Positions 4,154 through 61,881 of a DNA stretch of 64,000 bases are shown in pieces (position 1 is the stretch's first letter; each line of letters starts with the position of its first letter). The notes under the pieces are model-generated. The model did no database searches. It had not been told where the DNA came from and saw only the letters and a program-made list of their open reading frames with translations. The DNA is from Patescibacteria group bacterium (GTDB taxonomy: Bacteria; Patescibacteriota; Minisyncoccia; Phycocordibacterales; Phycocordibacteraceae): contig JAJDCJ010000012.1 of the NCBI GenBank assembly GCA_029260935.1, forward strand, positions 33,315 to 97,314, in the 5' to 3' direction. The translations under genes and the position numbers were made by a program.

Positions 4154-4535
4154 CTTCAGGGTTTATTAAAAATGACGTACGCACAATACCCATATACGCT
4201 TTACCCATCATCTTTTTTTCCTGCCATACGCCGTACTTGGTAACTGTCTCACCCGACTCATCGGCAAGTAAAGGGAATGGCAAACTATATTTTTCGGCAA
4301 AGCGTTTGTGGCTTGCCACTGAATCTTTAGAAATACCCAGCACGTCAGCGTGCATGTTCTCAAACTGCGGAAACGTGTCACGGAGCATGCATGCCTCTTT
4401 TGTGCACCCCGGAGTGTCGTCTTTTGGATAAAAATAGAGTAACGTCCAGCGCCCGCGGTACTTGGAAAGCGTATGAGACTTCCCCGCTTGGTCAGGCAGG
4501 GTAAAATCGGGAGCACTCTTCCCAACAGCAATCAT
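4065..4535 (-). CDS. bcp: thiol peroxidase / peroxiredoxin Bcp
   Basis: FYPKDDTPGCTKEAC peroxidatic Cys motif; 156 aa. Confidence 0.8.
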   Translation of the reverse strand: MIAVGKSAPDFTLPDQAGKSHTLSKYRGRWTLLYFYPKDDTPGCTKEACMLRDTFPQFENMHADVLGISKDSVASHKRFAEKYSLPFPLLADESGETVTKYGVWQEKKMMGKAYMGIVRTSFLINPEGEVAKIYEKVKPEIHAEEVLNDLKEFGAE

Positions 4536-4548
4536 ATCCTTGAGTATA

Positions 4549-5298
4549 TCACGAACCCTTTTCTTCTTTTTTGTTTTCTTTTTCTTTTTCGCTTATTTCT
4601 TTTATTTTTTCTGCTTCTTTTTCAACTTGTTTATCTGCGGTTCGTGCCGTTTTTTCAGCAATATTTCGTTTGACATAAAGGTTCATCAGTGAAAATACCA
4701 CCATACTGGCAAAAACAACACCAACAATGTTTACAAAAAGAAACACAGAAGCGCCAATTACTACATCCCAATTAAGTGCAGCAAGTCCTACACCCATTGA
4801 AGCAACCGGCGGAATAATAGCCACAGCAACGGCAATACCCGGCAATGTCGCACTCAACTCAGGTTTAATCAGTGTGTAGGCAACGGCAAAACCTGCAACT
4901 ATAGCGATTGCAACCGATACAAGTGTTGTGTGTGTGCGCAATAACACTTCGGGGGTAATAGTGTCACCAATTCCGAAAAATAGCGCCGCTAAAAATGAAG
5001 CGAGTAATCCAAGAATAAGCGCCTTTGCAAGTGTCCTGGTTGCGCGAGCAATAAGAACATAATCACTCATTACGACCGAAAGTGAGAGTGAGAGTATAGG
5101 AAATAAAATGGGAGCAATCAGCATACTGCCGATGACTACCGCGGGGCTATTTTCAAGCACACCGAATGTTGCCATAAGCACTGATAAAATAACAAGGAAA
5201 AAGAAATCAAAGTTCGGTGTTGATGCTTCAATTAACTTTTTTACTGCAACTGATTTGTCATGCTCTGATATTGCGCGAATGTGATTAAGAAAACCCAT
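4549..5298 (-). CDS. DUF389-like integral membrane protein with K/E-rich C-terminal tail
   Basis: Multiple TM helices and a charged tail EKEAEKIKEISEKEKENKKEEKGS. Confidence 0.4.
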   Translation of the reverse strand: MGFLNHIRAISEHDKSVAVKKLIEASTPNFDFFFLVILSVLMATFGVLENSPAVVIGSMLIAPILFPILSLSLSVVMSDYVLIARATRTLAKALILGLLASFLAALFFGIGDTITPEVLLRTHTTLVSVAIAIVAGFAVAYTLIKPELSATLPGIAVAVAIIPPVASMGVGLAALNWDVVIGASVFLFVNIVGVVFASMVVFSLMNLYVKRNIAEKTARTADKQVEKEAEKIKEISEKEKENKKEEKGS

Positions 5299-13707: not shown

Positions 13708-13761
13708 CGAATTCGAGCTTTTTTAAAATCGAGCGTTTCACTTGTAAAAAACTCGAATTCG
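13708..13761. repeat. long inverted repeat with 21-nt loop
   Basis: Arms CGAATTCGAGCTTTTTT and AAAAAACTCGAATTCG give about 16 bp of pairing. Confidence 0.7.
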
Positions 13762-13770
13762 GCTGGCCGT

Positions 13771-13838
13771 CTCGAGCTAGAACCGCGGTCGGTTAAGCCC
13801 CACAAGGTTATTTTTAACTATTTTATTTTACCAATTCG
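13771..13838. repeat. conserved 3' flank of cassette locus A (about 80% identical to 42631-42700)
   Basis: CTCGAGCTAGAACCGCGGTCGGTTAAGCCCCACAAGGTTATTTTTAACTATT against CTCGGGCTGGAACTGTGGTCGGCTAAGCCCAGTAAGGTTATTTTTAACTATT. Confidence 0.8.
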
Positions 13839-13868
13839 ACGGGTCTCGAGCACCTTAATCTCATATAT

Positions 13869-15176
13869 TCAAAAAGATAAAACACTCAGCATGCTCTCAA
13901 TTGATTCTCGTAAGTCGCTTTCATTAAAATCAGGTCTAGCTGTTTCATCTGCATGATGAATTTTATTTCTTATGGATACAGGAAGAGACTCAATAACAAC
14001 ATCTCCGACTTTACATGTTGAGTGAGAAATAGTCGCAGTAAACTGACTTGCTTTTCTTACGTTCGAATCTCCATCTAATTTCCTTTTTAGTTGACTGTAG
14101 CCCCCTTCTTTTACCTCCAAAGCAGCGAAAAGCTCGATATGTAATAGTTCATCGACGATATCATAAACTTTATAGTTTATTAAATTTAAACTGGGACCGC
14201 CTCCAATCATGTTTTTATAAAACCCAATCTTTTCACCTATCTGCTCCTTATTTCTGTCAATCTTGTAACACACGCTTTTCCCGTCCCTCAATCCTTGCAG
14301 GATGTACGGAGAATGAGTTGCTATCACAAATTGAATATCTAAACCCGTAAACACATCCGTTAGAAACTGAATATATTTCTTCTGCCACTTAGGATGCAAA
14401 CTTGTCTCTGGTTCATCAATTAGTATTAAAGAACCGTCTAAATTTTCTAACTCTTTTAAAAGGTGACCGACTCTATAAATTATTTGTTTCTCTCCTGTGC
14501 TAAATGTACCCAAACCAACTTCGTTACTGTTTTCGTCTGTGAAGACAATCTTCAGTTCACCATCTTGAGGCTTAACAGTTTTGAATGTTTTTGTCCCATT
14601 AAACATTTTTTCAAATGCATTTGTAAATCTTTCAATTTTACGAGTATGTTGCTCTGGAATTTTTCCATGCTCTGCAATGTAGTCATCGATAAAAGTCGCA
14701 TCCTGGGTCTTAAGATTAACTAACAGTTGAGGAATTACCTCAGATAAATCCTCAGACTCTTCTCTTGGGTTCCTTTTCTCATCTATGGTTATTGCGGTTG
14801 CAGAAGTAACTTTAGGATTTTTAAAACCAACAGCAACCCTATCGTAAATAACTTTTAAATCTTTTGGGTGATTATCACTGCTAATTCGACTGTCCTCTAC
14901 ATTGATTTTCATTTCGGTGTACTCTTCGCCATCCAGGAGAGAAAGTACGGCTTTTATTTCATTACTGTCCACGTGTATTAAGTAACCCTCTTCTGTCTTT
15001 CCCAAGCTGTTATAAATCAAATCAAGAATGGACGTCTTTCCATATCCATTCTCACCAGCCAAAAAGAAGAAAGAGGGTATATTCTTTTTATCCTCAGACT
15101 TTTCAAAAAGTGTTAAAACTGAATCCCCTTTGAACGCAGGATGTGAAGTAAATTTGATTTGTTGAAGTTTTTTCAT
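13869..15176 (-). CDS. ABC/SMC-type P-loop ATPase (AAA_21/AAA_15-like), second gene of a two-gene operon
   Basis: Walker A LAGENGYGKTS, signature-like FSTGEKQ, Walker B LILIDEPETSLHP, H-loop ATHSP, and a 120-aa C-terminal extension with no TOPRIM or HNH motif. Confidence 0.75.
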   Translation of the reverse strand: MKKLQQIKFTSHPAFKGDSVLTLFEKSEDKKNIPSFFFLAGENGYGKTSILDLIYNSLGKTEEGYLIHVDSNEIKAVLSLLDGEEYTEMKINVEDSRISSDNHPKDLKVIYDRVAVGFKNPKVTSATAITIDEKRNPREESEDLSEVIPQLLVNLKTQDATFIDDYIAEHGKIPEQHTRKIERFTNAFEKMFNGTKTFKTVKPQDGELKIVFTDENSNEVGLGTFSTGEKQIIYRVGHLLKELENLDGSLILIDEPETSLHPKWQKKYIQFLTDVFTGLDIQFVIATHSPYILQGLRDGKSVCYKIDRNKEQIGEKIGFYKNMIGGGPSLNLINYKVYDIVDELLHIELFAALEVKEGGYSQLKRKLDGDSNVRKASQFTATISHSTCKVGDVVIESLPVSIRNKIHHADETARPDFNESDLRESIESMLSVLSF

Positions 15177-15679
15177 TTTTTATCATCAGTATTCCAAAAT
15201 CTCTCAACCTCTTCCTGTTTCTTTTTCCTTTCTGAATCCAACTCATTCCTAAATGACTGCCCCAATTCATTTGCAAATCTATTTTCAATTTCTTCAACTC
15301 TTAGGTATGCTTCACGACCTTCATTTTGGTGTTCTTTACTGCTTTCGTCATCTTCACTTTCTAATGATAGATAATGTGAAGAATTTTGTCTGCTGAGATT
15401 GTACGCGTAATCTTTCCAATCTTCAGCTAAACGAACCAATTTAGATTGATCATGTTTATGTTTTTCTTTCAATCGAATGTACCAGTCTTTCATTCTTACT
15501 ACTTCTGGTTCATCTTCTTCCAACCCATAGGCAACCTTAGCTGTTGTTCTGTATGAATTAAGCATTAAGTCTGCAAATTCCTCGTATTTTTCTATCTTTT
15601 TTGCAGGTGTCGAATCAAGCACTAGTTTTGCTATGTACCAAATTGCCACGATTATTAAAATTGTATAAATAAAACTCAT
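15173..15679 (-). CDS. membrane-anchored coiled-coil protein, first gene of the operon (start corrected to MSFIYTIL)
   Basis: N-terminal TM helix IYTILIIVAIWYIAKLVL followed by a highly charged E/K/D-rich region; overlaps the ATPase gene by 4 bp (ATGA). Confidence 0.55.
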   Translation of the reverse strand: MSFIYTILIIVAIWYIAKLVLDSTPAKKIEKYEEFADLMLNSYRTTAKVAYGLEEDEPEVVRMKDWYIRLKEKHKHDQSKLVRLAEDWKDYAYNLSRQNSSHYLSLESEDDESSKEHQNEGREAYLRVEEIENRFANELGQSFRNELDSERKKKQEEVERFWNTDDKK

Positions 15680-15780
15680 ATCTTTTATTCTATCGCAACC
15701 ACCATATTTATATAGTAAGTTGCCTGCAACGCTCTTCGAGCGCACGAGATCGCTATATTCCTCGAGCTAGCTCGATTTGG
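15680..15780 (-). promoter_or_regulatory. conserved 5' flank/promoter of cassette locus A (homologous to 43350-43447)
   Basis: Shares TTGCGATAG(A/T)ATAAAA(G/A)AT immediately before the ATG, plus CTCGTGCGCTCGA and GAGCTAGC blocks, with locus B. Confidence 0.7.
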
Positions 15781-15935
15781 CTGGGGGACAGGGACTCGAA
15801 CCCCGATTGATGGCACCAGAAACCATAGTCCTACCGACAAGCGAGTGAGGGTCACAGGAAAGTTTACTTTCATATGACCGAACGAGCGCAGTCGGAAAGC
15901 TTTGCTTACCACTGGACGATCCCCCAAGGCGTTAG
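15781..15935 (-). tRNA. tRNA-Gln(CUG) interrupted in the D-loop by an 81-nt insertion
   Basis: The exons fold into a canonical 74-nt tRNA with U1-A72, G73, D-arm GUCC/GGAC, anticodon loop UUCUGGU and T-loop UUCGAGU. The insert starts AGCAAAGCUU. Confidence 0.6.
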
Positions 15936-21932: not shown

Positions 21933-22090
21933 CTCCGGCGAAGCCGGACCCAGCTCCGCCGGGCGGTCCGCATATGTAAGCAAAGCTTCCTCTCATCGAT
22001 CACTCGGAAGAGTAACCGCATTCACTCTTCCCTCGCTTCTCTCGATAGTAAAGAAAAACAGTACGCAGGTACTGTTTGTTCTTTCATATG
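21933..22090. repeat. repeat-family copy: GCTCCGCCGGGC motif, GTAAGCAAAGCTT, internal hairpins, ending at the tRNA-Asp 3' end
   Basis: Shares GCTCCGCCGGGC and GTAAGCAAAGC with the 48786-49225 array, and TTTGTTCTTTCA with 21023-21157. Confidence 0.6.
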
Positions 22091-22165
22091 CGCGGCCGAC
22101 CGGACTCGAACCGGCAACCTCCCGCGTGACAGGCGGGTGCTACTAACCAATTGAGCTACGGCCGC
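22091..22165 (-). tRNA. tRNA-Asp(GUC)
   Basis: Anticodon loop CUGUCAC, T-loop UUCGAGU, acceptor GCGGCCG/CGGCCGC. Confidence 0.8.
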
Positions 22166-22850
22166 ATTTCGGATACAGAGTATGTATTGCCTTCGAAAAT
22201 AGCTCGTATTTCCTTGGTAAATACAGTTCTGTATTAGGGCTAGTATGATACATCAGCTTGTAAAGTGCAAGACTATCGCGATGACTAAAAACAAGTTCAA
22301 AGCCTCGCTTCTTGTACTTTTCTAAAACAAATCCCCTATTCAGACCATTTTCTCTAAGAGTACTAAAGAGTGTTAGAAGAAATTTTTGAGATCCTGACGT
22401 GAATCTGCTTGTAAATACCCAACGTTTTTTGTTTCGATCTTTAGCAAAATATTTTTTAAAATGAACGCTGCCGTCGCCATCAAAATATCCCCTGACGAAA
22501 TGATGTAAATATCCTTGAGGGACTTTTGGGAAACAGATTGTTTTGCTTTTGTTTTGAGTGAAACCAAGTTTTATCAAATCAGAGAACCATTCTCTACTTC
22601 CAAACTGCACGCGATACTGTTGCTTCCATTTTTCGTTCCTTTGAGGACGTTCCGAAATTTTCTGAGTTCCTCCGACAATCTTCCGTAATTTTTGAAGCAA
22701 AATTTTGTCTGTAGATGTAAATTCAATATAGTGTCCTCCTCTTTTATTCTCAATCATTGAACCGTCTGCGGCAAAATACCCCAATACATACGCCATGTCT
22801 GATGTCCACGTTTTGAAAAAGTCTTGGTTTAGCTTCTTTTTTATTGGCAC
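22143..22850 (-). CDS. double-motif LAGLIDADG homing-endonuclease-family protein, free-standing, directly 5' of tRNA-Asp
   Basis: Two motifs, VLGYFAADGSM and VRGYFDGDGSV, spaced about 100 aa apart; the 3' end overlaps the tRNA 5' region by about 23 nt. Confidence 0.7.
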   Translation of the reverse strand: MPIKKKLNQDFFKTWTSDMAYVLGYFAADGSMIENKRGGHYIEFTSTDKILLQKLRKIVGGTQKISERPQRNEKWKQQYRVQFGSREWFSDLIKLGFTQNKSKTICFPKVPQGYLHHFVRGYFDGDGSVHFKKYFAKDRNKKRWVFTSRFTSGSQKFLLTLFSTLRENGLNRGFVLEKYKKRGFELVFSHRDSLALYKLMYHTSPNTELYLPRKYELFSKAIHTLYPKCGRSSIG

Positions 22851-24161: not shown

Positions 24162-24401
24162 TTATTTGGTAGGTCCCTTGGTACTGCCATGCCCACGACA
24201 CCCTTCGCATTTTTTAAATAGGTCTTCTACGAACCAACCGCCACGATTTCCGCAATGTTGACACCCTCCACCTTCACACTTCCTACATATATGCCACGAT
24301 TTTCCATACCCAGACCCCTTACATTTTGTACAAATAGTAGGATCAAAATCTTTTTTGTATTGAGTTTCAAACATATGGTGCCGACGGCAGGAATTGGTCA
24401 C
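24162..24401 (-). CDS. small DnaJ-type zinc-finger protein (four CxxCxGxG repeats); likely start MFETQYKK
   Basis: CTKCKGSG, CRKCEGGG, CQHCGNRG, CEGCRGHG; the annotated N-terminus overlaps the tRNA-Met-derived repeat. Confidence 0.55.
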   Translation of the reverse strand: MTNSCRRHHMFETQYKKDFDPTICTKCKGSGYGKSWHICRKCEGGGCQHCGNRGGWFVEDLFKKCEGCRGHGSTKGPTK

Positions 24402-24768
24402 CCGTCGCTAACCATTTTACTTCATAAACTCGTAAAATGCTAATCGCGCTCCACCCCGACTCGGCAACGTGTGCTCCGCCACGGCTTCGCACCCTCTGTC
24501 TTTCAATTCCTTCCGTCTTGTTCAAATTGTAAAAAATACTATGCATGCGCATAGTATTTAACAATTTGTGCCGACGGCAGGAATTGGTCAGGAGTCCATG
24601 AAAATTAGAGTCACTGCCGTTCCTTAATTTTCTATGGCTCACGACCCTGGCTCGGCGACAAGCACTCGTCGTACCTCCTCGTCTTGTATACCGCCTCCGC
24701 CTTTCAATTCCTGTCAATCAGGCACATTGTAAAAAACACCATACTCAAACGTATGATGTTTTACAATG
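24367..24768. repeat. two tandem about-200-bp units, each ending with a copy of the tRNA-Met 3' end (GTGCCGACGGCAGGAATTG)
   Basis: The 19-mer occurs at 24367, 24568 and 24768 (the last is the tRNA itself). The units share CTCGGC, CTTTCAATTCCT and TTGTAAAAAA blocks. Confidence 0.8.
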
Positions 24769-24844
24769 TGTGCCGACGGCAGGAATTGAACCTGCGACCT
24801 TAGCTTTATGAGTGCTACGCTCTAACCAACTGAGCTACGCCGGC
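24769..24844 (-). tRNA. tRNA-Met(CAU) elongator-type (could be the k2C Ile2 species)
   Basis: Acceptor GCCGGCG/CGUCGGC, anticodon loop CUCAUAA, T-loop UUCAAUU. Confidence 0.75.
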
Positions 24845-25070: not shown

Positions 25071-25121
25071 TCTTTCAGTTCTCAAAAAATACCATTTTTT
25101 GATGGAAAAAGAAATAAAAAA

Positions 25122-25450
25122 TGTTGCGGGGCCCAGAATCGAACTGGGGTCTGGAGGTTCTTTTACACTCAATGTTTCCAAAGAGAATGGACTATACCAT
25201 GGTCCACGTGGGACCCTCCCATTATAGTCTCTGAACCTTCCGAGCTATATCAAACGATATGGCTTGGCTTGGCTGCTGATTACCGAATCAACTTGCTTTT
25301 TAAACCATCGCACTCACCCTCTCAGGTCATGCTGTGGTGCAAGAAGCTCTAACGGCTTTCCAGCAATTTAGAGAGTTTTCCACCGTCTGTTGCCAAACGG
25401 GGTCACGTTCTTCACATGAGCCTCCCGAGGTACCTCTCCTCTACCCCGCG
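25122..25450 (-). ncRNA. about 330-nt structured RNA with tRNA-like T-arm and acceptor end; possible tmRNA (ssrA), unconfirmed
   Basis: 3' end CCCAGUUCGAUUCUGGG-CCCCGCA-A-CA pairs with 5' CGCGGGG. The region has no ORF and smpB is present in the window. There is no G3-U70 pair and no classic tag. Confidence 0.35.
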
Positions 25451-25537
25451 CTATCAGCATATGACATTAAGCTCTACTCGTCAACAAAGTAGCGAGATTA
25501 ACGTGACGCGCTCGTATTCTTGAGTCAATAACCACTA

Positions 25538-32516: not shown

Positions 32517-33409
32517 TGCGCAATAATAAAAGGAGAAATAGTGGTAAACATGCCGACTAAGGCTGCTATAAACAGAAAGGGCACGAATGCTATTTCACTC
32601 TTCATCTTAAACCAGAAATTGCCTTCTGTTTGAGAAACACCTCGCCTGTGTGGTGATAAAGAAAATACCATTTTTCTAATGAAAAACGCTATCCGCGGTG
32701 CAAGGATAAGAGACACTCCAATAAGTGCCCCTATCCAAAAAGCAATTGTTATCACTTCAATACCGCGCCCCACTCCAAACAACACACCGAGGGCACTTGC
32801 GATATAAATATCCCCCACTCCCATTCCTTTTCCATGGGAAAGAAACACAATTGCAGTAAAAAACCCACCCAACACAAGCGCGCCCAAAAATGCATCAAGA
32901 AGTGGTGTAACACTGTTCATTGAAAAAGCTTCAAACACACGGACCAGAATAACTGAACCCAACACTACCCACGCAAACAAAGACGGCACCAATGTGTGGC
33001 GTATGTCGTACACCACTAATACAAGAAAACTTGACCAAAACACCAGGAGTACAACAAAAGAAAAGAGATGCCATATCGAGATAAAAGGAAACGCACCATA
33101 TGCAACACCAAGGAACAGTAATCCTGTTGCGAGTTCAACTAATGGGTACTGCAAGGAAAGTCGGCTCCCGCAGTAACGACATGTCCCCAAAAGGAAAAAG
33201 TACGAAAGTAGCGGAATGAGTTCATACCACACAAGCGTGTGCTGACATGACTGACACTGCGAGCGGGGTCTTTTTGACTCATAAAATCCAAAGCGAAAAA
33301 TAACAACATTGAGAAAACTCCCTACAATGAGACCTAACAAAAACATGCTTATTAAAAATATATCCATAACGGTTTCTCCATTGAGTATGCCATATAAAAA
33401 AACCGACAT
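32498..33409 (-). CDS. pilD: prepilin peptidase PilD (likely start at MDIFLIS, about 33367)
   Basis: Zinc-finger cysteines CQSC...CRYC, DIRHTLVP and multiple TM segments. Confidence 0.8.
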   Translation of the reverse strand: MSVFLYGILNGETVMDIFLISMFLLGLIVGSFLNVVIFRFGFYESKRPRSQCQSCQHTLVWYELIPLLSYFFLLGTCRYCGSRLSLQYPLVELATGLLFLGVAYGAFPFISIWHLFSFVVLLVFWSSFLVLVVYDIRHTLVPSLFAWVVLGSVILVRVFEAFSMNSVTPLLDAFLGALVLGGFFTAIVFLSHGKGMGVGDIYIASALGVLFGVGRGIEVITIAFWIGALIGVSLILAPRIAFFIRKMVFSLSPHRRGVSQTEGNFWFKMKSEIAFVPFLFIAALVGMFTTISPFIIAQWALAI

Positions 33410-42545: not shown

Positions 42546-42630
42546 AATATTTTTGATTAGTTATTACCTGGTTTCAAAGTAGTCTTTCTATTTTGGTCTG
42601 TCAACCGTTTCAGGTAAAAGTGAAAATTGG

Positions 42631-42700
42631 CGGGCTACCTCGGGCTGGAACTGTGGTCGGCTAAGCCCAGTAAGGTTATTTTTAACTATTTCAGTTTATC
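42631..42700. repeat. conserved 3' flank of cassette locus B (homologous to 13771-13838)
   Basis: See the 13771-13838 entry. Confidence 0.8.
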
Positions 42701-42728
42701 AACATTAAGGTCCTCAAGCTCTTTTGTA

Positions 42729-43349
42729 TTATTTGTCTAAATTTGAAAGTTTTTTTAACTTAATACCAGCACTTGACGTTGTGATTTTTTCAATCTTTTG
42801 TAAAAGGATCTTAATTCTATCGACAGTAACCTTTGGAGAGTAGGGGGTATTATACAGATCCATACCATTTCCATACTCAGTTAACCTATCTTTTACATAC
42901 TTATTAGGGTCGGCATTCTCAAACGAACCAGTCACAAATTTTGCTATTGTTTGTACTGTAGTTCTTGCTCGCTCTTCTGTTGTGATCCAAAAATAATTAG
43001 CATTTCTTCTCGCAAAATTCTCTATTAATTCTCCATGATCATAAAAAGAGTTGATGAGCTTTAGTTCATCTTGATCAAAATCGCTTATAAATAAATGTGC
43101 GTATTTTTTCCAATTACCTGACTTAATAACTGATGTTGGTAAGTCGCTCAGATTTCCACTAGAAATTTTGTCGTCGATAATCGCAATTTGTTCTTCAGCG
43201 GTCCTAATTTCTGTGAGCAGAACTCTTGCCGCTTGTATTTTGTTACTCTTCTTTTGCGAGAAATAAGTAAGAATAGCAACACTCCCTGTCAAAATGGTGG
43301 CGAATCCAGCAAATCCATTTGAATTAAGAATTGAAATTAAAATTTCCAT
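42729..43349 (-). CDS. cargo gene of cassette locus B: membrane-anchored protein of unknown function
   Basis: N-terminal TM helix GFAGFATILTGSVAILTYF followed by a 180-aa soluble domain. Its ATG is preceded by TTGCGATAGTATAAAAAT, the same element found upstream of the locus A operon. Confidence 0.55.
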   Translation of the reverse strand: MEILISILNSNGFAGFATILTGSVAILTYFSQKKSNKIQAARVLLTEIRTAEEQIAIIDDKISSGNLSDLPTSVIKSGNWKKYAHLFISDFDQDELKLINSFYDHGELIENFARRNANYFWITTEERARTTVQTIAKFVTGSFENADPNKYVKDRLTEYGNGMDLYNTPYSPKVTVDRIKILLQKIEKITTSSAGIKLKKLSNLDK

Positions 43350-43447
43350 ATTTTTATACTATCGCAATTAATAAATTTGTATAGCGAACTGCCTACAAAC
43401 TGCCTCGAGCGCACGAGGAATATAGCTTCTTCGTGCTAGCTCTAAAC
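43350..43447 (-). promoter_or_regulatory. conserved 5' flank/promoter of cassette locus B
   Basis: Homologous to 15680-15780; the overlapping ORF 43368-43622 is probably spurious. Confidence 0.65.
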
Positions 43448-43468
43448 GGCGGAGACGCAGGGATTCGG
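43448..43468. repeat. partial copy of the tRNA-Ser 3' end (GCGGAGACGCAGGGATTCGG)
   Basis: Matches 43641-43661, the tRNA T-arm and acceptor, at 20 of 21 positions. Confidence 0.75.
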
Positions 43469-43639
43469 TCACCTTTACTAAGTATTTTACTCCTCTCGTT
43501 CGTAAAACACTAAGTGACGCGACCCCGTCGGCTACTACTGCGTATTCTCGCAGGCTTCGCAGTAGCCTCTTTTCGAATCCCTCATCGTCCGTAGAATGTA
43601 CAAGCCAAAATGCTATTCGCATCAGGGCTTACCATTTTA

Positions 43640-43728
43640 TGCGGAGACGGAGGGATTCGAACCCTCGAGGGGTATTACCCCCTGGCACATTAGCAGCGTG
43701 CTGGTTTCAACCACTCACCCACGTCTCC
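43640..43728 (-). tRNA. tRNA-Ser(GCU), class II with long variable arm
   Basis: Acceptor GGAGACG/CGUCUCC, D-arm GGU/ACC with loop GAGUGGUUGAA, anticodon loop CUGCUAA, variable arm CAGGGGGUAAUACCCCUCG, T-loop UUCGAAU. Confidence 0.8.
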
Positions 43729-43772: not shown

Positions 43773-43791
43773 ACCACTCACCCACGTCTCC
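43773..43791. repeat. partial copy of the tRNA-Ser 5' end (CCACTCACCCACGTCTCC)
   Basis: Duplicates 43711-43728, about 45 nt beyond the tRNA 5' end. Confidence 0.75.
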
Positions 43792-49267: not shown

Positions 49268-49345
49268 TGGTCCGCCCTCTTGGACTCGAACCAAGAAACC
49301 TTCTAGGTATAAGCTAGATGCTCTAACCAATTGAGCTAAGGGCGG
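49268..49345 (-). tRNA. tRNA-Ile(UAU)
   Basis: Acceptor CCGCCCU/AGGGCGG, D-arm GCUC/GAGC, anticodon stem UCUAG/CUAGA with loop CUUAUAC, T-loop UUCGAGU, encoded CCA. Confidence 0.75.
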
Positions 49346-49352
49346 ACTTAAA

Positions 49353-50063
49353 CTATAGCGCTTTTGTGGGGTCAAACGCAACACCACCATACACCTCTCT
49401 CAATCTCGCAATACCTGCCGCAATTTTCTCGCGCAGATCTCTGTTCCTGAAATATATATTGCATGTTCCGTAACCAAAGCGTCCTTTATAGTTTTTCTGC
49501 TTCTTCGTGGTCGTTTTTTTGATATATGGTTTTCTAAAGGAAGATTTTGCAATACCCAACTCCTCTGACCAAAAAGAAATCGCTGAAGCAATGTTCATAT
49601 CTTCGTAAAGGTGTAAATAAACTTTTAGTTCGTCTTTTTTAACACCCAAAAATTCAATCCATTTAATAAAACTTTTTATCATAGCTGGGTCAGTGTTGGT
49701 GAACATGACCGTATACGGATCTGCTTTAAGCCCTTCACCCCAATAGAGGAAAAAGCCAGCGATGTATAATTCGCGCTTTGAGATTCTCCCAATATCTCTC
49801 ACTGCTAATGTATAAACATTTTGCAAGCGGGCAAGTTTTTTCTTCCGTTTTGTCTCTCTTGTTTTCTCTATGCGCTTTTCTGAATGATCACGAAGCTCTC
49901 TGATGCGTTTTTCTGACAATGGCATATCACGAAGCCATAGACTCAATGTACTTTTACTCACATTAAGTTTTTCTTTAATCTGACCATAACTCATCCCCTT
50001 TTTACGTAAGGATACTGCCTGTTCTCTGTCTTTATGTCGCGCCATAATCAAACCTTTAAACAA
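49353..50063 (-). CDS. HTH-domain protein with a single degenerate LAGLIDADG-like motif, directly 5' of tRNA-Ile
   Basis: N-terminal HTH (MSYGQIKEKLNVSKSTLSLWLRD) and LAGLIDADG-like IAGFFLYWGEGL with Glu in place of Asp. Confidence 0.45.
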   Translation of the reverse strand: MFKGLIMARHKDREQAVSLRKKGMSYGQIKEKLNVSKSTLSLWLRDMPLSEKRIRELRDHSEKRIEKTRETKRKKKLARLQNVYTLAVRDIGRISKRELYIAGFFLYWGEGLKADPYTVMFTNTDPAMIKSFIKWIEFLGVKKDELKVYLHLYEDMNIASAISFWSEELGIAKSSFRKPYIKKTTTKKQKNYKGRFGYGTCNIYFRNRDLREKIAAGIARLREVYGGVAFDPTKAL

Positions 50064-53240: not shown

Positions 53241-53293
53241 CCCCGAAATTGTCCGAATTGTCCGAAGTCTAGACTTCGGACAATTTCGGGGGG
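53241..53293 (+). terminator. nested palindrome CCCCGAAATTGTCCGAA[TTGTCCGAAGTCTAGACTTCGGACAA]TTTCGGGG after smpB
   Basis: 26-nt perfect inner palindrome inside an outer 8-bp stem. Confidence 0.55.
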
Positions 53294-54120
53294 TGATCGG
53301 CTTCGACAATAAGTTTTTGTTTTCTACGTGCAAAACGGTGAATGCTGGAGAACACCTTAAACCTCGAGTAAATACAACGTGCAAACGCTGTAAAGAGTCC
53401 GTACCAAGCCCTTTTGGGTCTTGGTCAACTCGTTCCTGTTCGCGCGTAAGCGTAGAACGGCATCACATTCTCTGACTCCTGATATGGGAGTGCTGGTGTA
53501 ATACCATCAGGATAAGGAAGCGACGTGCTCGTTCGCTTCTCAAAAATTAAGAGCTCGATACCACATGCTTTTGTTTACTTTTTATATGTGTTATTTAAAA
53601 CCCTAAAGTAAACTACGTTTTGTAGAATCGTCTTAAACTTTCTTGTTGCATCCGGGTTCGATTCCCGGCATCTCCACAGCTGAACGAACCGCCTTTCGAG
53701 GCGGTTTTCGTTTTGCTGAGAGATGGAGCGAGTGAACTGCTTCACTCGCGTTGGGAATTGAAAGCCGGAATGCCACACCTCGCGAGGTGTGGCATGCGTC
53801 GGGTCGCGGAATTTCCGAGTGGCTGACGAGGAAATATCTGTGACCGATGCGTGCGAGCGCCAGCGAAGACACTTCTCGGCATCTCCACCAGTGAAATAAA
53901 ATACCGCCCAGCTCGGGTGGTATTTATTTTTCCTTACAAACTACAAAAACAAGTTATCTCCCCTTTCCAATTATGAGAACACGCGTAGCACCCACCCGAT
54001 TTTCCTTTACATCTATTGCAGAGCACCGTCCCCGTACCACAACAAGCGCTACACCACTTCGTCTCTTTTAGAGCTCTTTTCTCAGACATACCTACTTACT
54101 ATTAATAGTATACTAGCCAT
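53294..54120. other. about 830-bp ORF-poor region with two tRNA-3'-end-like fragments, palindromes and two hairpin-plus-T-run terminators
   Basis: T-arm plus acceptor-like TTGCATCCGGGTTCGATTCCCGGCATCTCCACA at 53646-53678 and a CGGCATCTCCACCA copy at 53887-53900. Perfect palindrome GCCACACCTCGCGAGGTGTGGC. Only short overlapping ORFs. Confidence 0.5.
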
Positions 54121-59025: not shown

Positions 59026-61881
59026 CTAGACACTGCGCATTCCTTTATACTTTTCTTTAATTTCATCTTCAATGGCAGCACGTTCTTTTCCGTAACGCTG
59101 ATATGACATTTGTTTTAATGCTTCAATTTGTGCGGGATCACCGGAACGGAATGCGATTGTTTCCATTGAAAACGGCGTAAGTGGTTTTCCATGGGCAAGC
59201 ATTTTGATATATGCATTGTAGTTATCAATATGAAGCATATCTTTTGAATTAAATGTAGGGACAAACTGTTTTTCCAAAAATGATGCGTCATCTGATCCAA
59301 CACGGAAGATAGCCATTGACCCAACGTTACCGAACACTGCGTCTGAGATTGATGGCTGTAGTTGTTTGATAAACTGGTGCGCCATAGTGAGTGACAGTTT
59401 GTATTTACGAGCCTCAGAAAGAATTGTGGCAATGGTGTTGGTGGTGATGTTTTGGAACTCATCCATATAAAGGAAAAACGGTGGAGGGTTAAGGTGTAAC
59501 GAATCACTTCTACTGAGTGCCGACATTAAAATCTTTCCAACGATGATAAGACCGAGAAGGTTTGCATTAACATCTCCCAAGCGCCCCTTTGAAAGATTCA
59601 CTAAGAGGATCTTCTTGTTATTCATAATGTCTTGGAAGTTGAATGCACTCCTTTGTTGCCCAATAATCGGGCGCATAATTTCGTTTGCAATAAAGATATC
59701 AAACTTACTGGTGATGTATGGCACCACATTGCGTAGGTCACCTTCTCCACGCACCTGTTCTGCAACTTCCTCCCAGAAGTGATTGACGATTGGGTTTCTT
59801 GAACGTGAGAGCTTAAGATGTCTGAAGTCTTCATCTGAGAGCACACGTGAAATATCCATCAACGTAGAGCCGGTTTCCGGATCTTCCAACACGAGCAAGG
59901 TGGCATTTCTAAAGTACTGCTCAAAGATAGGACCGAACGCTTCAGGAGTATCACCATACAACTTTTTAAATATCTGAAACATTTCATCCACCACGAACGT
60001 CTTCTGCTCTGGGAAGCGTGGGTCATATTCCAACATATTGAGACCCATAGGGCGGTCAGTATGGGCCGGGTCAAAATAAATGAGGTCATCATAACGCTCC
60101 GGTGGAATACGTCCCAAAATATCCTGAACATCAACGCCATGCGGGTCAATAAAAGCGACACCTTCACCCCGCTCAATATCCTGGATAATCATTTGCTTTA
60201 GGAAGTTTGTTTTACCGGTACCGGTTTGCCCCACAGTGTAAAAGTGGCGCATACGGTCTTCGTTTGAGAAATGAATATCCGTTTCGACATTGGCGTGGCG
60301 ATTTTTGCCCAAAAGAATACCTTCAGTGGGCATGCCCGTCGGTGCCGGAGCAAATCTTGCATTTGAACTCTTTACTTCACGTGAGCTTGTTCCTCCACAA
60401 ATAGTTAAGTGAAAAAGCGTTGCAAGTTCAGTGAGGTTCATAGGCATGGCGGGAGTTGAATACACAAGAAGTGATTTTACCTTGAACCCACTAAACTCAA
60501 ACCTGAAAGCACGCCAAAAAGACTCAATAGGCCCTTTATCAAAGGTTCGGAAAATAAAGGAACGCAACAGAGCTTGTTTTGCTTTTTTATCTTTCGGGCG
60601 CCTGAATTTAAAGCGGTTACCGTCTGCTTCTTCATATTGTCCGAATGCCAACTCTAATTCTTCAAGCATGGCGTCTGCCCTATCGCCAGTACGTGCTGAC
60701 GTTACAATTCTGATATTCACCCCAGAAAGAATGCTTTTCATTTTCGCAATTAATTTTTCAGTTCTCTGTCCGTCAACAGTTTTTTCTCCTTCTTTTTTTT
60801 CTGAAGTATTAAAAATATTTTTAGTTCCTTTGACAAGCGAGGGAAAGAGACGACGCATAAAAGAGTACCGAGGTAAATATTTATGATCTTGAAAAATTTT
60901 TCCCGACTTTGCAGTACCAAGTTTATTTATTTCATCAAGAACACTACGGAAGCGTTTTATATGATACTCGCCGGCTCCGGCAACAGAAATCTGGATAGCG
61001 GCACCTTCTCCTTCTTTGGTGATCTTTGAAAGTGCTGACAGAAGAAGGTTCAGTGGGTCGTAAGCAAACCCCTGTGCAGTCCTAATAGGTAATAATGCTG
61101 GACGAAACAGTGTTCCATACGCAATAGAGGATTCGCCAAATTGGTTAAAGATATTATAATCATCTTTCTTTTCAACAATTCTCGTGCGGGGGAAATTTGC
61201 GAAAATTTGTTTTTCAAAAATGTCGCGACGCATACGTGGCATTGCTATATAAAAGACAGCTTCTTCACTTTCCTGTGACACCGCAATTTCCATTGAAAAA
61301 TGTTCATTATGGATTCCTTTTCTTCTTCTCCAATCTTTCAAGAAAATAGGGTCGGGAACACTCACAAACGGAATTACGCTCTGATACAGCTGTTCCATTT
61401 TTGTTACAACGTCTGCAAGCGAACTACCCTCTGCTCCAGACTCTGCCACAGGCACCGCAATTTCAAGGAGAACAAAATCAAGTGCGCGCACCAGAGGATC
61501 ATCTTTTTCCGCGCCAACAATAGCGTGTCCTCCACCCTTAAACTGCACCAATAATCTATGAAAGTCATCTTCTATATGCGGATTATCAATCTTATCAAGC
61601 TCTGCGAGTACCGCCTTAAGCCCTTTTTGATTAAGAATACCGAGCAACTCTTCCATATCCTTATCGTTATGGTCGGGACGCAACTCAAGTGAAATTTCTG
61701 GTTCATCAAGTACTGGCTGTGGCGCTGGTTGTCCTATTGGTTCAAACTCAAGCGACGGTGCCTCATCAGTGCCCCCAAAATTTGAACTTCCACCACCGGC
61801 ACCACCCGTACGCGTTTGTTCACGTAATTTAACCATTTGGTGCTCTGGTGATTGGTTTGTTTCTCCTCCGGGAGTTTTCAT
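59026..61881 (-). CDS. large HerA/FtsK/TraG-superfamily P-loop ATPase with a 570-aa N-terminal domain of unknown function
   Basis: C-terminal Walker A GQTGTGKT followed by FIDPHGVD (HerA/DUF87-like DPHGE motif), FDPAHTDRPMGLNML, Walker B FFLYMDEFQ, then AHQ. Confidence 0.55.
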   Translation of the reverse strand: MKTPGGETNQSPEHQMVKLREQTRTGGAGGGSSNFGGTDEAPSLEFEPIGQPAPQPVLDEPEISLELRPDHNDKDMEELLGILNQKGLKAVLAELDKIDNPHIEDDFHRLLVQFKGGGHAIVGAEKDDPLVRALDFVLLEIAVPVAESGAEGSSLADVVTKMEQLYQSVIPFVSVPDPIFLKDWRRRKGIHNEHFSMEIAVSQESEEAVFYIAMPRMRRDIFEKQIFANFPRTRIVEKKDDYNIFNQFGESSIAYGTLFRPALLPIRTAQGFAYDPLNLLLSALSKITKEGEGAAIQISVAGAGEYHIKRFRSVLDEINKLGTAKSGKIFQDHKYLPRYSFMRRLFPSLVKGTKNIFNTSEKKEGEKTVDGQRTEKLIAKMKSILSGVNIRIVTSARTGDRADAMLEELELAFGQYEEADGNRFKFRRPKDKKAKQALLRSFIFRTFDKGPIESFWRAFRFEFSGFKVKSLLVYSTPAMPMNLTELATLFHLTICGGTSSREVKSSNARFAPAPTGMPTEGILLGKNRHANVETDIHFSNEDRMRHFYTVGQTGTGKTNFLKQMIIQDIERGEGVAFIDPHGVDVQDILGRIPPERYDDLIYFDPAHTDRPMGLNMLEYDPRFPEQKTFVVDEMFQIFKKLYGDTPEAFGPIFEQYFRNATLLVLEDPETGSTLMDISRVLSDEDFRHLKLSRSRNPIVNHFWEEVAEQVRGEGDLRNVVPYITSKFDIFIANEIMRPIIGQQRSAFNFQDIMNNKKILLVNLSKGRLGDVNANLLGLIIVGKILMSALSRSDSLHLNPPPFFLYMDEFQNITTNTIATILSEARKYKLSLTMAHQFIKQLQPSISDAVFGNVGSMAIFRVGSDDASFLEKQFVPTFNSKDMLHIDNYNAYIKMLAHGKPLTPFSMETIAFRSGDPAQIEALKQMSYQRYGKERAAIEDEIKEKYKGMRSV

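Follow-up and report, generated by a model that had tools for sequence, protein, structure and literature searches.

Small cassettes with conserved noncoding ends and different cargo behind tRNA genes in Patescibacteria

Known integrative systems and how the cassettes compare

The tycheposons of Prochlorococcus are inserted at the 3′ ends of tRNA and transfer-messenger RNA (tmRNA) genes, have partial tRNA copies as flanks, and stack in tandem (bioRxiv 10.1101/2020.12.28.424599). Two much smaller units, named cassettes A and B, are described here from a stretch of 64,000 nucleotides of a Patescibacteria group bacterium (assembly GCA_029260935.1, contig JAJDCJ010000012.1, forward-strand positions 33,315–97,314). 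This whole stretch is called the window, and positions refer to its first letter as position 1. From their anatomy alone we infer, tentatively and with somewhat less than even confidence, that A and B are small cassettes without an integrase, which were inserted site-specifically at the 3′ ends of tRNA genes.

The likeness to tycheposons comprises the tRNA/tmRNA 3′-end target, apparent partial tRNA copies as flanks, and the tandem stacking outward, as well as a variable adaptive or defense cargo in a streamlined genome without classical mobile elements. However, the cassettes described here have no tyrosine recombinase, replication, or packaging gene, are far smaller (0.7–3 kb), and possess conserved noncoding 5′ and 3′ modules together with a putative promoter of their own. 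The terminal repeats differ as well, being 5 to 6 nt long in A, B, and the related cassette F, as opposed to typically ~40 nt in tycheposon-type elements.

In layout, the cassettes resemble those of integrons—meaning one to a few genes, a conserved noncoding end 3′ of a variable open reading frame (ORF), one defined site, arrays, and no recombinase of their own. In contrast to integrons, neither intI nor an attI platform was found at the cassettes, and it is a tRNA 3′ end that is targeted. Most integron cassettes lack a promoter, whereas each cassette here has its own −10-like box, and the imperfect palindrome with supported pairing that characterizes attC is not seen in the consensus fold of the 3′ module.

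Cis-mobilizable elements (CIMEs) and other non-autonomous elements of Firmicutes have attachment site (att)-type flanks and no recombination genes, both of which are found here as well. CIMEs presumably move with the help of an integrase that acts in trans and is encoded by a related element with the same site. They are deletion derivatives of integrative and conjugative or integrative and mobilizable elements and, unlike the cassettes, have no conserved promoter–cargo–end layout. An autonomous element cognate to the att site of the cassettes was not seen among the 34 loci compared. CTX phage and other elements that exploit Xer likewise have no integrase of their own and make use of a folded single-stranded att site and the host recombinase. 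Reminiscent of the forked-hairpin attP of CTX phage are the gene-less stubs of ~190 nt described below, which contain inverted and direct copies of the target end with predicted pairing. The target of CTX phage is dif, whereas here it is a tRNA end, and there is no sign of single-stranded intermediates or of Xer involvement; in the cassettes proper, the inverted/direct arrangement is seen weakly and in A only.

The cassettes are best filed with the non-autonomous tRNA-targeted integrative elements (CIME-like elements and tycheposon remnants), which they resemble most in their way of working, with a layout like that of integron cassettes. Defining features of integrase-type elements and of integrons are lacking, as there is no integrase of their own, no intI or attI, and no attC-like fold, and each cassette brings its own putative promoter. 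No such cassettes were found described in the full-text literature on tycheposons and on mobile elements of Patescibacteria, Saccharibacteria, and the Candidate Phyla Radiation (CPR), the coverage of which was incomplete, so that this is weak evidence of novelty.

Architecture of cassettes A and B

Read on the minus strand, both loci exhibit the same order of a tRNA sequence, a 5′ segment, the cargo, and a 3′ segment, as a sequence-only reading of this DNA had proposed. As delimited here, cassette A extends from 15777, the first base after the CCA of tRNA-Gln, to 13761, and cassette B from 43447 to 42629. The 5′ segments (15683–15777 in A and 43350–43447 in B) are identical at 70 of 102 positions (69%) in a global alignment with a score of 34, compared with −12.6 ± 5.0 in shuffles. 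For the 3′ segments (13761–13868 in A and 42629–42728 in B), identity is 71/106 (67%) and the score 33 versus −15.6 ± 4.9. Each alignment lies ~9–10 standard deviations over shuffled sequence. The cargo of A and B is unrelated (hhalign E 0.44), and the proposal of two loci with common noncoding ends and different cargo is thereby confirmed. An exact 20-mer, AAATAGTTAAAAATAACCTT, is present in both 3′ segments; with three mismatches allowed, these are its only two sites in 64 kb (0.01 expected). Within the window, CTCGTGCGCTCGA and GGGCTTARCCGACC are also confined to loci A and B, and GCTAGC occurs twice, once in each 5′ segment. Profile searches of the 64-kb window gave no third copy of the 5′ or the 3′ segment.

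The 5′ module of cassette A (15683–15777, minus strand) opens with the palindromic motif TCGAGCTAGCTCGAG, which directly adjoins the tRNA CCA, and with a hairpin region. The conserved block CTCGTGCGCTCGA comes next, and the promoter-like TTGCGATAGAAT closes the module 7 nt before the ATG. The 3′ module of A (13761–13868, minus strand) leads from the motif GCTCGAGAC just past the stop codon, via the core AAATAGTTAAAAATAACCTT..GGGCTTAACCGACC, to GGTTCTAGCTCGAGACGGCCAGCC, and its final 6 nt repeat the tRNA-Gln terminus CCAGCC. The 10-bp direct repeat reported earlier for both ends of A is indeed present (CTAGCTCGAG at 13771 and 15761). In cassette B, the 5′ module (43350–43447, minus strand) is composed of the hairpin GCACGAAGAAG/TTCCTCGTGC, then GCTCGAGG, and then the promoter-like TTGCGATAGTAT 6 nt before the ATG. 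The 3′ module of B (42629–42728, minus strand) ends with ..GGTTCCAGCCCGAGGTAGCCCGCC; its last bases, CCGCC, are the same as those of the tRNA-end copy by which the cassette is bounded on the left.

A tRNA in front of each cassette, as had been claimed, is found with a qualification at either locus. At A, the target tRNA-Gln(CTG) (15778–15926, minus strand) was recognized by a hand parse and by alignment with the uninterrupted tRNA-Gln(CTG) of relatives. It is interrupted in the D-loop by a 69-nt insertion (15836–15904), which is predicted to form a long hairpin and is flanked by GGTAAG/GGTAGG. The Rfam tRNA match is limited to model positions 10–63, and ARAGORN makes no call for a tRNA-Gln at 15778–15926, while the syntenic tRNA-Gln genes of relatives (L028–L034) are uninterrupted. 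The insertion could be an intron, a tolerated extra arm, or the sign of a pseudogene. At B, the array is anchored by tRNA-Ser(GCT) (43641–43728, minus strand), and a gene-less stub of 193 nt (43448–43640, minus strand; fold z-score −6.7) intervenes between this tRNA and the cassette. Cassette B herein adjoins a second, degenerate copy of the tRNA 3′ end: the stub closes with a 19-nt copy of the tRNA-Ser 3′ end (one mismatch) and also contains an inverted copy of that end. A stub homologous to that of locus B also precedes cassette C, described below, in L002.

Related cassettes in other genomes

The search of genomes and metagenomes that the sequence-only reading had suggested recovered more cassettes with other cargo. 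A scan of genome and metagenome collections with the 3′ core gave the true relatives C and D, and homologues of cargo B led to E, F, and G. Cassette C (L002, a metagenome-assembled genome deposited as Saccharibacteria) carries a 230-aa protein. Cassette D (L003, a 131-kb contig) consists of an intact tRNA-Gln(CTG), three genes—decarboxylase-like, hypothetical, and methyltransferase—and then the 3′ module. In the Wolfebacteria cassette E (L005–L010), a GIY-YIG gene and then a cargo-B homologue lie between tRNA-Gln(CTG) and the 3′ module; this cassette was found at E = 2e-10 by a 3′ profile built without E. Cassette F (L011/L012) shows tRNA-Ser(GGA), the 5′ module, a cargo-B homologue (67% amino acid identity), and the 3′ module, and G (L017) shows tRNA-Ser(GCT), a short promoter region, a single cargo-B homologue, and a perfect 18-nt copy of the tRNA 3′ end (ATCCCGCCCTCTCCGCCA).

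The 3′ module stands beside five different cargo sets in five organisms and is accompanied by the 5′ module in most cases, with which the idea of constant ends and exchangeable cargo holds beyond this genome. The insertions lie at the 3′ part of tRNA genes, that is, at tRNA-Gln(CTG) for A, D, and E, at tRNA-Ser(GCT) plus stub for B, at tRNA-Ser(GGA) for F, and at tRNA-Ser(GCT) for G. Where visible, the upstream RNA gene is always tRNA-Gln(CTG) or a tRNA-Ser (or a copy of a tRNA end). Scans of viral contigs with five DNA patterns and one protein profile returned nothing or chance matches (L001, L019, L004-type).

Next to cassette D, the gene directly on its 3′ side (L003 3632–3907, plus strand) has a weak match to cyclodipeptide synthase (Pfam E 5e-4, under the family cut-off), which is a tRNA-dependent enzyme.

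Boundaries of the cassette and its absence from close relatives

The extent of the unit can be appreciated from the end-to-end alignment of B and F. Identity amounts to 76% in the 5′ module (~85% over the first 60 nt), 83% in the 3′ module, and 71% in the cargo DNA. The noncoding ends are more alike than the cargo DNA and are, therefore, under more constraint than the protein-coding cargo. Similarity between B and F falls to background exactly past GAGGTAGCCCGC(C/A); on the left, both are bounded by the tRNA terminus. Within each cassette, the two boundaries close with the same five bases, which match the respective target: CCGCC in B and CCGCA in F. The target-matched repeat in A is CCAGCC (6 nt). 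The cassette unit ends at a short repeat of the target tRNA terminus. For A–F, the argument from these repeats is based on their position and their co-variation with the target, not on their length. Judged from the sequences, the repeats of the tRNA terminus at the boundaries point to a site-specific insertion at the tRNA end rather than to plain homologous exchange.

A miniature inverted-repeat transposable element or another transposon with terminal inverted repeats that carries cargo was also considered and rejected: only in A do the two ends form an inverted repeat (10/12), and the flanking repeats, at 5, 6, and 18 nt, do not have the constant length of a target-site duplication.

The PyrG protein of the window has its nearest relatives annotated as Paceibacterota/Parcubacteria; together with a tmRNA, a group I intron, and type IV pilus genes in the window, this assigns the organism to the Patescibacteria. 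Two relatives, with PyrG 80% and 76% identical, keep the order prfB–ftsE–ftsX–pyrG–small gene–tRNA-Gln(CTG). Herein the tRNA-Gln is intact, and the DNA behind it is different in each lineage. Neither module is found within 10 kb in these syntenic relatives, which speaks against a 3′ module that is vertically inherited next to tRNA-Gln and marks the tRNA end as a variable hotspot. In the closest relative (L028 5667–5830, plus strand), tRNA-Gln(CTG) is followed by a noncoding stretch of ~150 nt with a 13-bp long-range inverted repeat (GCGCTTGAGTGG.../...CCACTCAAGCGC) and an 8-nt tRNA-end repeat (CCGGGCAG); this stretch may be another stub-like insertion.

Possible functions of the 5′ and 3′ modules

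Each cassette starts with a hairpin directly behind the tRNA, the sequence of which differs in C, D, and E. The stems are strong and 11 bp long in B and F, 16 bp and unrelated in C, and 12 bp in E, whereas D has a small hairpin and then TTTT. Since an insertion cuts the tRNA off from the signals that normally follow it, the hairpin is most simply read as one that the element brings along, and it probably terminates or insulates the tRNA transcript. The end of the 5′ module is formed by TTGCG(A/T)TA(G/A)NAT, a TAGNAT-type box; in A, B, C, and F, its distance from the ATG is 6–7 nt, and a Shine–Dalgarno sequence is lacking. The −10-like box seen before the ATG by the sequence-only reading is thus present in A and B but is not specific to cassettes, as at least two other genes have it: TGCGNTAGNAT is found before ftsE (20022) as well and, in a version with one mismatch, before the GIY-YIG gene (12282). 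The enrichment of the −10-like motif in the window was not significant once one mismatch was allowed. The term generic promoter is based on three exact sites, one near-exact site, and a looser 16-mer count. The box is plausibly a host-type promoter from which a leaderless mRNA is predicted. That the shared ends might be nothing but a generic promoter or terminator had been named as the outcome that would undo the cassette idea; it applies to the last ~12–20 nt of the 5′ segment and not to the rest of the segments.

The core of the 3′ module is invariant across six cassettes and reads AAAAA.A.CCTT...G.G..T, then GGTTC.A. A canonical terminator, that is, a hairpin with a T-run, is found in neither 3′ module of A and B. 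Searches against Rfam matched no family in the modules or stubs and did not recognize the 3′ module as tRNA-like. The idea of the whole 3′ module being a decayed tRNA copy was rejected, with the tRNA-like part comprising GGTTC(T/C)A..terminus only and the overall similarity not above shuffles. The 3′ module would act as a recombination end that combines a putative protein-binding site with a mimic of the tRNA terminus, and this is the weakest link in the argument.

Proposed mechanism and alternative explanations

The proposed cassette family would comprise elements of 0.7–3 kb without a recombinase, which are located directly at tRNA 3′ ends in Patescibacteria. Its layout would consist of a 5′ hairpin module, a promoter 6–7 nt from the ATG, one to three cargo genes that are often defense-like, and a 3′ module of ~100 nt. 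The latter would contain the strongly conserved core and end in GGTTC(T/C)A, which resembles a T-loop, followed by a few nucleotides copied from the 3′ terminus of the target tRNA. The joined ends of the cassette would undergo site-specific recombination with the tRNA 3′ terminus, whereby the cassette is inserted as a whole, and the recombinase would come from elsewhere in the genome, or from a phage or plasmid, and act in trans. Older insertions would be displaced outward by newer ones, for which locus B is an example. Being needed by the element for insertion and expression, the conserved ends would outlast the cargo. What the sequences show is how the cassettes are built and bounded, that they recur with other cargo, and that syntenic relatives are without them; a recombinase in trans, a circular intermediate, and a leaderless start are what we infer.

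Several results weigh against site-specific insertion of such cassettes. No integrase, resolvase, or transposase ORF was found in the 64-kb window or in any cassette; this search comprised Pfam scans of the cargo, the flanking genes, and unrecognized ORFs, and the other ORFs of the window were read by eye. The terminal repeats of A–F are just 5–6 nt long, and in a crude local-alignment test the overall similarity of tRNA end and cassette end is not above shuffles in A–F, with G alone being significant. G has no conserved modules, and its tie to A and B is a shared cargo family and target type only. The consensus fold of four 3′ modules contains 14 pairs, none of them with a compensatory change, and the covariation term is unfavorable. 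The notion that the joined ends always rebuild a palindromic core was rejected, with a clear palindrome in A alone. No excised, circular, or polymorphic form of a cassette was seen, the six contigs of the Wolfebacteria locus do not differ in cassette presence or absence, and the at least seven independent cassettes recovered are a small sample.

Homologous recombination after natural transformation is the main rival, unlikely but to be taken seriously. Crossovers in the tRNA plus 5′ module and in the 3′ module would swap the cargo, with the ends serving as homology arms. No dedicated recombinase is needed herein, and none was found; pilus and competence genes are present in the window (PilB/T/C/M-like and ComF-like), and A, D, and E share the target tRNA-Gln(CTG). 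The ends of A, moreover, are mosaic: the boundary-proximal parts are like those of D, which has the same target (17/20 in the first block of the 5′ end and 20/27 in the block after the stop codon), whereas the inner hairpin/spacer is like that of B, C, and F (27–31/42 versus 11/42 for D), as is the center of the 3′ end (33–35/39 versus 28/39 for D). This mosaicism is compatible with some recombination between cassettes. However, arms of ~100 nt that are 67–83% identical, with perfect blocks of at most 20 nt, are a poor substrate for RecA-type recombination, and the same modules lie behind three tRNAs (Gln-CTG, Ser-GCT, and Ser-GGA), which tRNA homology cannot bring about. Double crossovers are not expected to yield target-matched repeats or the perfect 18-nt repeat of L017, and the 3′ arm is wholly absent in close relatives. 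For the earlier cassette-exchange reading, this means that the constant ends with exchangeable cargo stand, in line with the syntenic relatives without a cassette, whereas plain homologous exchange, one of its two proposed routes, is not favored by the target-matched repeats. Rather improbable is that A–G are decayed remnants of larger integrase-bearing elements such as prophages and conjugative or mobilizable islands, of which the att-proximal ends and a few accessory genes are left. The tRNA and tmRNA ends in this genome do hold arrays of partial 3′-end copies, as island remnants do, a similar picture has been published for tycheposon remnants (bioRxiv 10.1101/2020.12.28.424599), and the tRNA of A is itself damaged or interrupted. 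Still, seven independent cases with a promoter, one to three genes, and the same end of ~100 nt would require identical deletions to have occurred time and again; the ends are more strongly constrained than the cargo, which is unexpected in dead DNA, and no integrase fragment lies in or beside any cassette.

The modules could also be ordinary regulatory DNA of the host, that is, a promoter and a terminator or processing signal that flank unrelated genes by chance and have nothing to do with mobility. This is hardly credible: the TGCGNTAGNAT box does occur before ftsE and, with one mismatch, before the GIY-YIG gene, and the hairpin that opens every cassette behind the tRNA differs in sequence in C, D, and E, but apart from the −10 box both modules are found just twice in 64 kb, and no hairpin with a T-run, as in a terminator, is seen in the 3′ module. 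The 3′ module is, furthermore, kept across distant lineages yet absent from close relatives, and the cargo is compositionally foreign. Spread by homing, in which an endonuclease cuts the cassette-free tRNA locus and the repair co-converts the cassette, is highly improbable as well. Endonuclease genes are certainly close at hand, with a small GIY-YIG gene inside cassette E (L005), a GIY-YIG gene directly upstream of tRNA-Ser in L017 with 12 nt of the tRNA 5′ end repeated at its flank, another one 1.5 kb from cassette A, and a LAGLIDADG gene abutting tRNA-Asp in the window. However, no endonuclease is encoded in cassettes A, B, C, D, and F, the GIY-YIG proteins of 83–99 aa consist of the catalytic domain only without a DNA-binding domain, and a repair-based spread makes no terminal target repeats.

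Site-specific insertion of cassettes at tRNA 3′ ends, therewith the preferred reading, can be carried further, to the bolder and unlikely idea of an integron-like system that belongs to Patescibacteria. The tRNA 3′ ends would serve as its landing site, at which self-expressed, promoter-bearing leaderless cassettes with a conserved recombination end of ~100 nt are captured and stacked by a recombinase in trans. That recombinase might act on folded att sites that mimic the end of a tRNA gene, as the structured stubs of ~190 nt would suggest.

Cargo genes

The cargo of A consists of two genes on the minus strand. Gene 1 (15173–15682) encodes a protein of 169 aa with an N-terminal membrane helix and no family match; it is translationally coupled to gene 2, with the stop and start codons overlapping in ATGA. 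Gene 2 (13869–15176) encodes a 435-aa ATPase of the AAA_21/AAA_15 type (Pfam E 6.7e-18), for which the top matches in the defense library are models of PtuA from the Septu system, with many profiles matching (PADLOC PtuA, best E 7e-29). Cargo A is like Septu (PtuA–PtuB) in this PtuA-type 435-aa ATPase. Septu, however, pairs PtuA with the HNH nuclease PtuB, whereas the partner here is the 169-aa membrane-anchored protein without a PtuB or HNH match.

Cargo B (42729–43349, minus strand) is a membrane-anchored, all-helical protein of 206 aa without a Pfam, PADLOC, or structural match. Its predicted all-helical structure (mean predicted local distance difference test score, pLDDT, 81.5) gave no match in the PDB (best E 0.3). 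The family comprises proteins of ~200 aa across Patescibacteria, with 73 homologues. In Nomurabacteria, a homologue lies inside a methyltransferase/DUF6996-6997 operon (L013–L016; L013 5001–5600), and the Wolfebacteria homologue adjoins an MvaI/BcnI restriction–modification system (L005 5893–8679). These restriction and methyltransferase neighbors hint at a defense-linked role of the family. A tie of the cargo-B family to the cassette was rejected: homologues also occur between housekeeping genes or in a restriction–modification operon, at loci without a tRNA or the modules, and the cargo family is, therefore, not cassette-bound.

The cargo is foreign by base composition. G+C amounts to ~35% in cargo A, compared with 40–46% in its flanks, and to ~34% in cargo B; overall, the cargo has 34–35% versus 40–52% in the surrounding DNA.

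Stubs and other apparent insertions at RNA genes

In addition to the stub of locus B, gene-less stubs of ~190 nt occur twice in tandem directly behind tRNA-Met (24376–24769, minus strand) and once directly behind the tmRNA (53680–53893, plus strand), and a stub of the same design and size class is found in L002 (3346–3560, minus strand). The stubs are built from a terminator-like hairpin, an inverted copy of the 3′ end of the host RNA, a conserved GGGGTCG..hairpin..GGTGACC motif, and a direct 3′-end copy. Over 14 nt, the direct copy is exact behind tRNA-Met, with one mismatch behind tRNA-Ser and two behind the tmRNA; behind tRNA-Met and tRNA-Ser, the direct copies reach ~19 nt by eye. The inverted and direct copies are predicted to pair into a target-like duplex, and the folds are very stable (z −4.1 to −6.7). 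Behind tRNA-Met and the tmRNA, CCA is found on the outermost copy and not on the gene-proximal copies, as is expected if the outermost copy is the displaced original gene end. The stub arrays carry the signature of repeated small insertions, and their arrangement matches the "tandem accretion" described for tRNA-targeted elements of Prochlorococcus (bioRxiv 10.1101/2020.12.28.424599). The tmRNA (53289–53679, plus strand) scores 91.6 bits with Rfam and was not called by ARAGORN; CCA is missing from its gene-proximal 3′ end but present on the copy 200 nt downstream.

Insertions seem to have entered on the 5′ side of tRNA genes as well. The 5′ end of tRNA-Ser in the window is duplicated as an 18-nt copy (43774–43791, minus strand) 63 nt upstream of the gene, and in L017 a 12-nt copy of the tRNA-Ser 5′ end and the tRNA itself (4520–4533 and 4858–4870) bracket the small GIY-YIG gene. 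Further ORFs of the window adjoin tRNA genes: a LAGLIDADG homing-endonuclease-like ORF (22143–22850, minus strand) overlaps the start of tRNA-Asp (22090–22165), and a 236-aa ORF (49353–50063, minus strand), with an N-terminal helix–turn–helix match only, lies directly upstream of tRNA-Ile (49268–49345). A group I intron (25168–25500, minus strand; Rfam, 55 bits) is followed by an apparent tRNA 3′ half (~25115–25160, minus strand), consisting of the T arm CCCAG-TTCGATT-CTGGG and the acceptor strand, with no 5′ half recognizable upstream. A 951-aa protein (59026–61881, minus strand) has weak matches to coupling proteins of type IV secretion (TraG/TrwB/VirD4-like).

Significance for Patescibacteria

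Patescibacteria have very small genomes with few recognizable mobile elements. Horizontal transfer nonetheless makes up a sizable part of their genes, in one survey up to 13% of genome length (PMC12455944). With the conserved 3′ module as a simple search sequence, cassettes of this kind and their cargo can be catalogued in metagenomes. If the reading is true, the cassettes would offer natural sites for insertion and modules for expression in the few Patescibacteria amenable to genetics. A compact cassette free of a recombinase, docking at tRNA genes and bringing its own promoter, would then be a concrete route for gene exchange among Patescibacteria, including that of defense-like genes.

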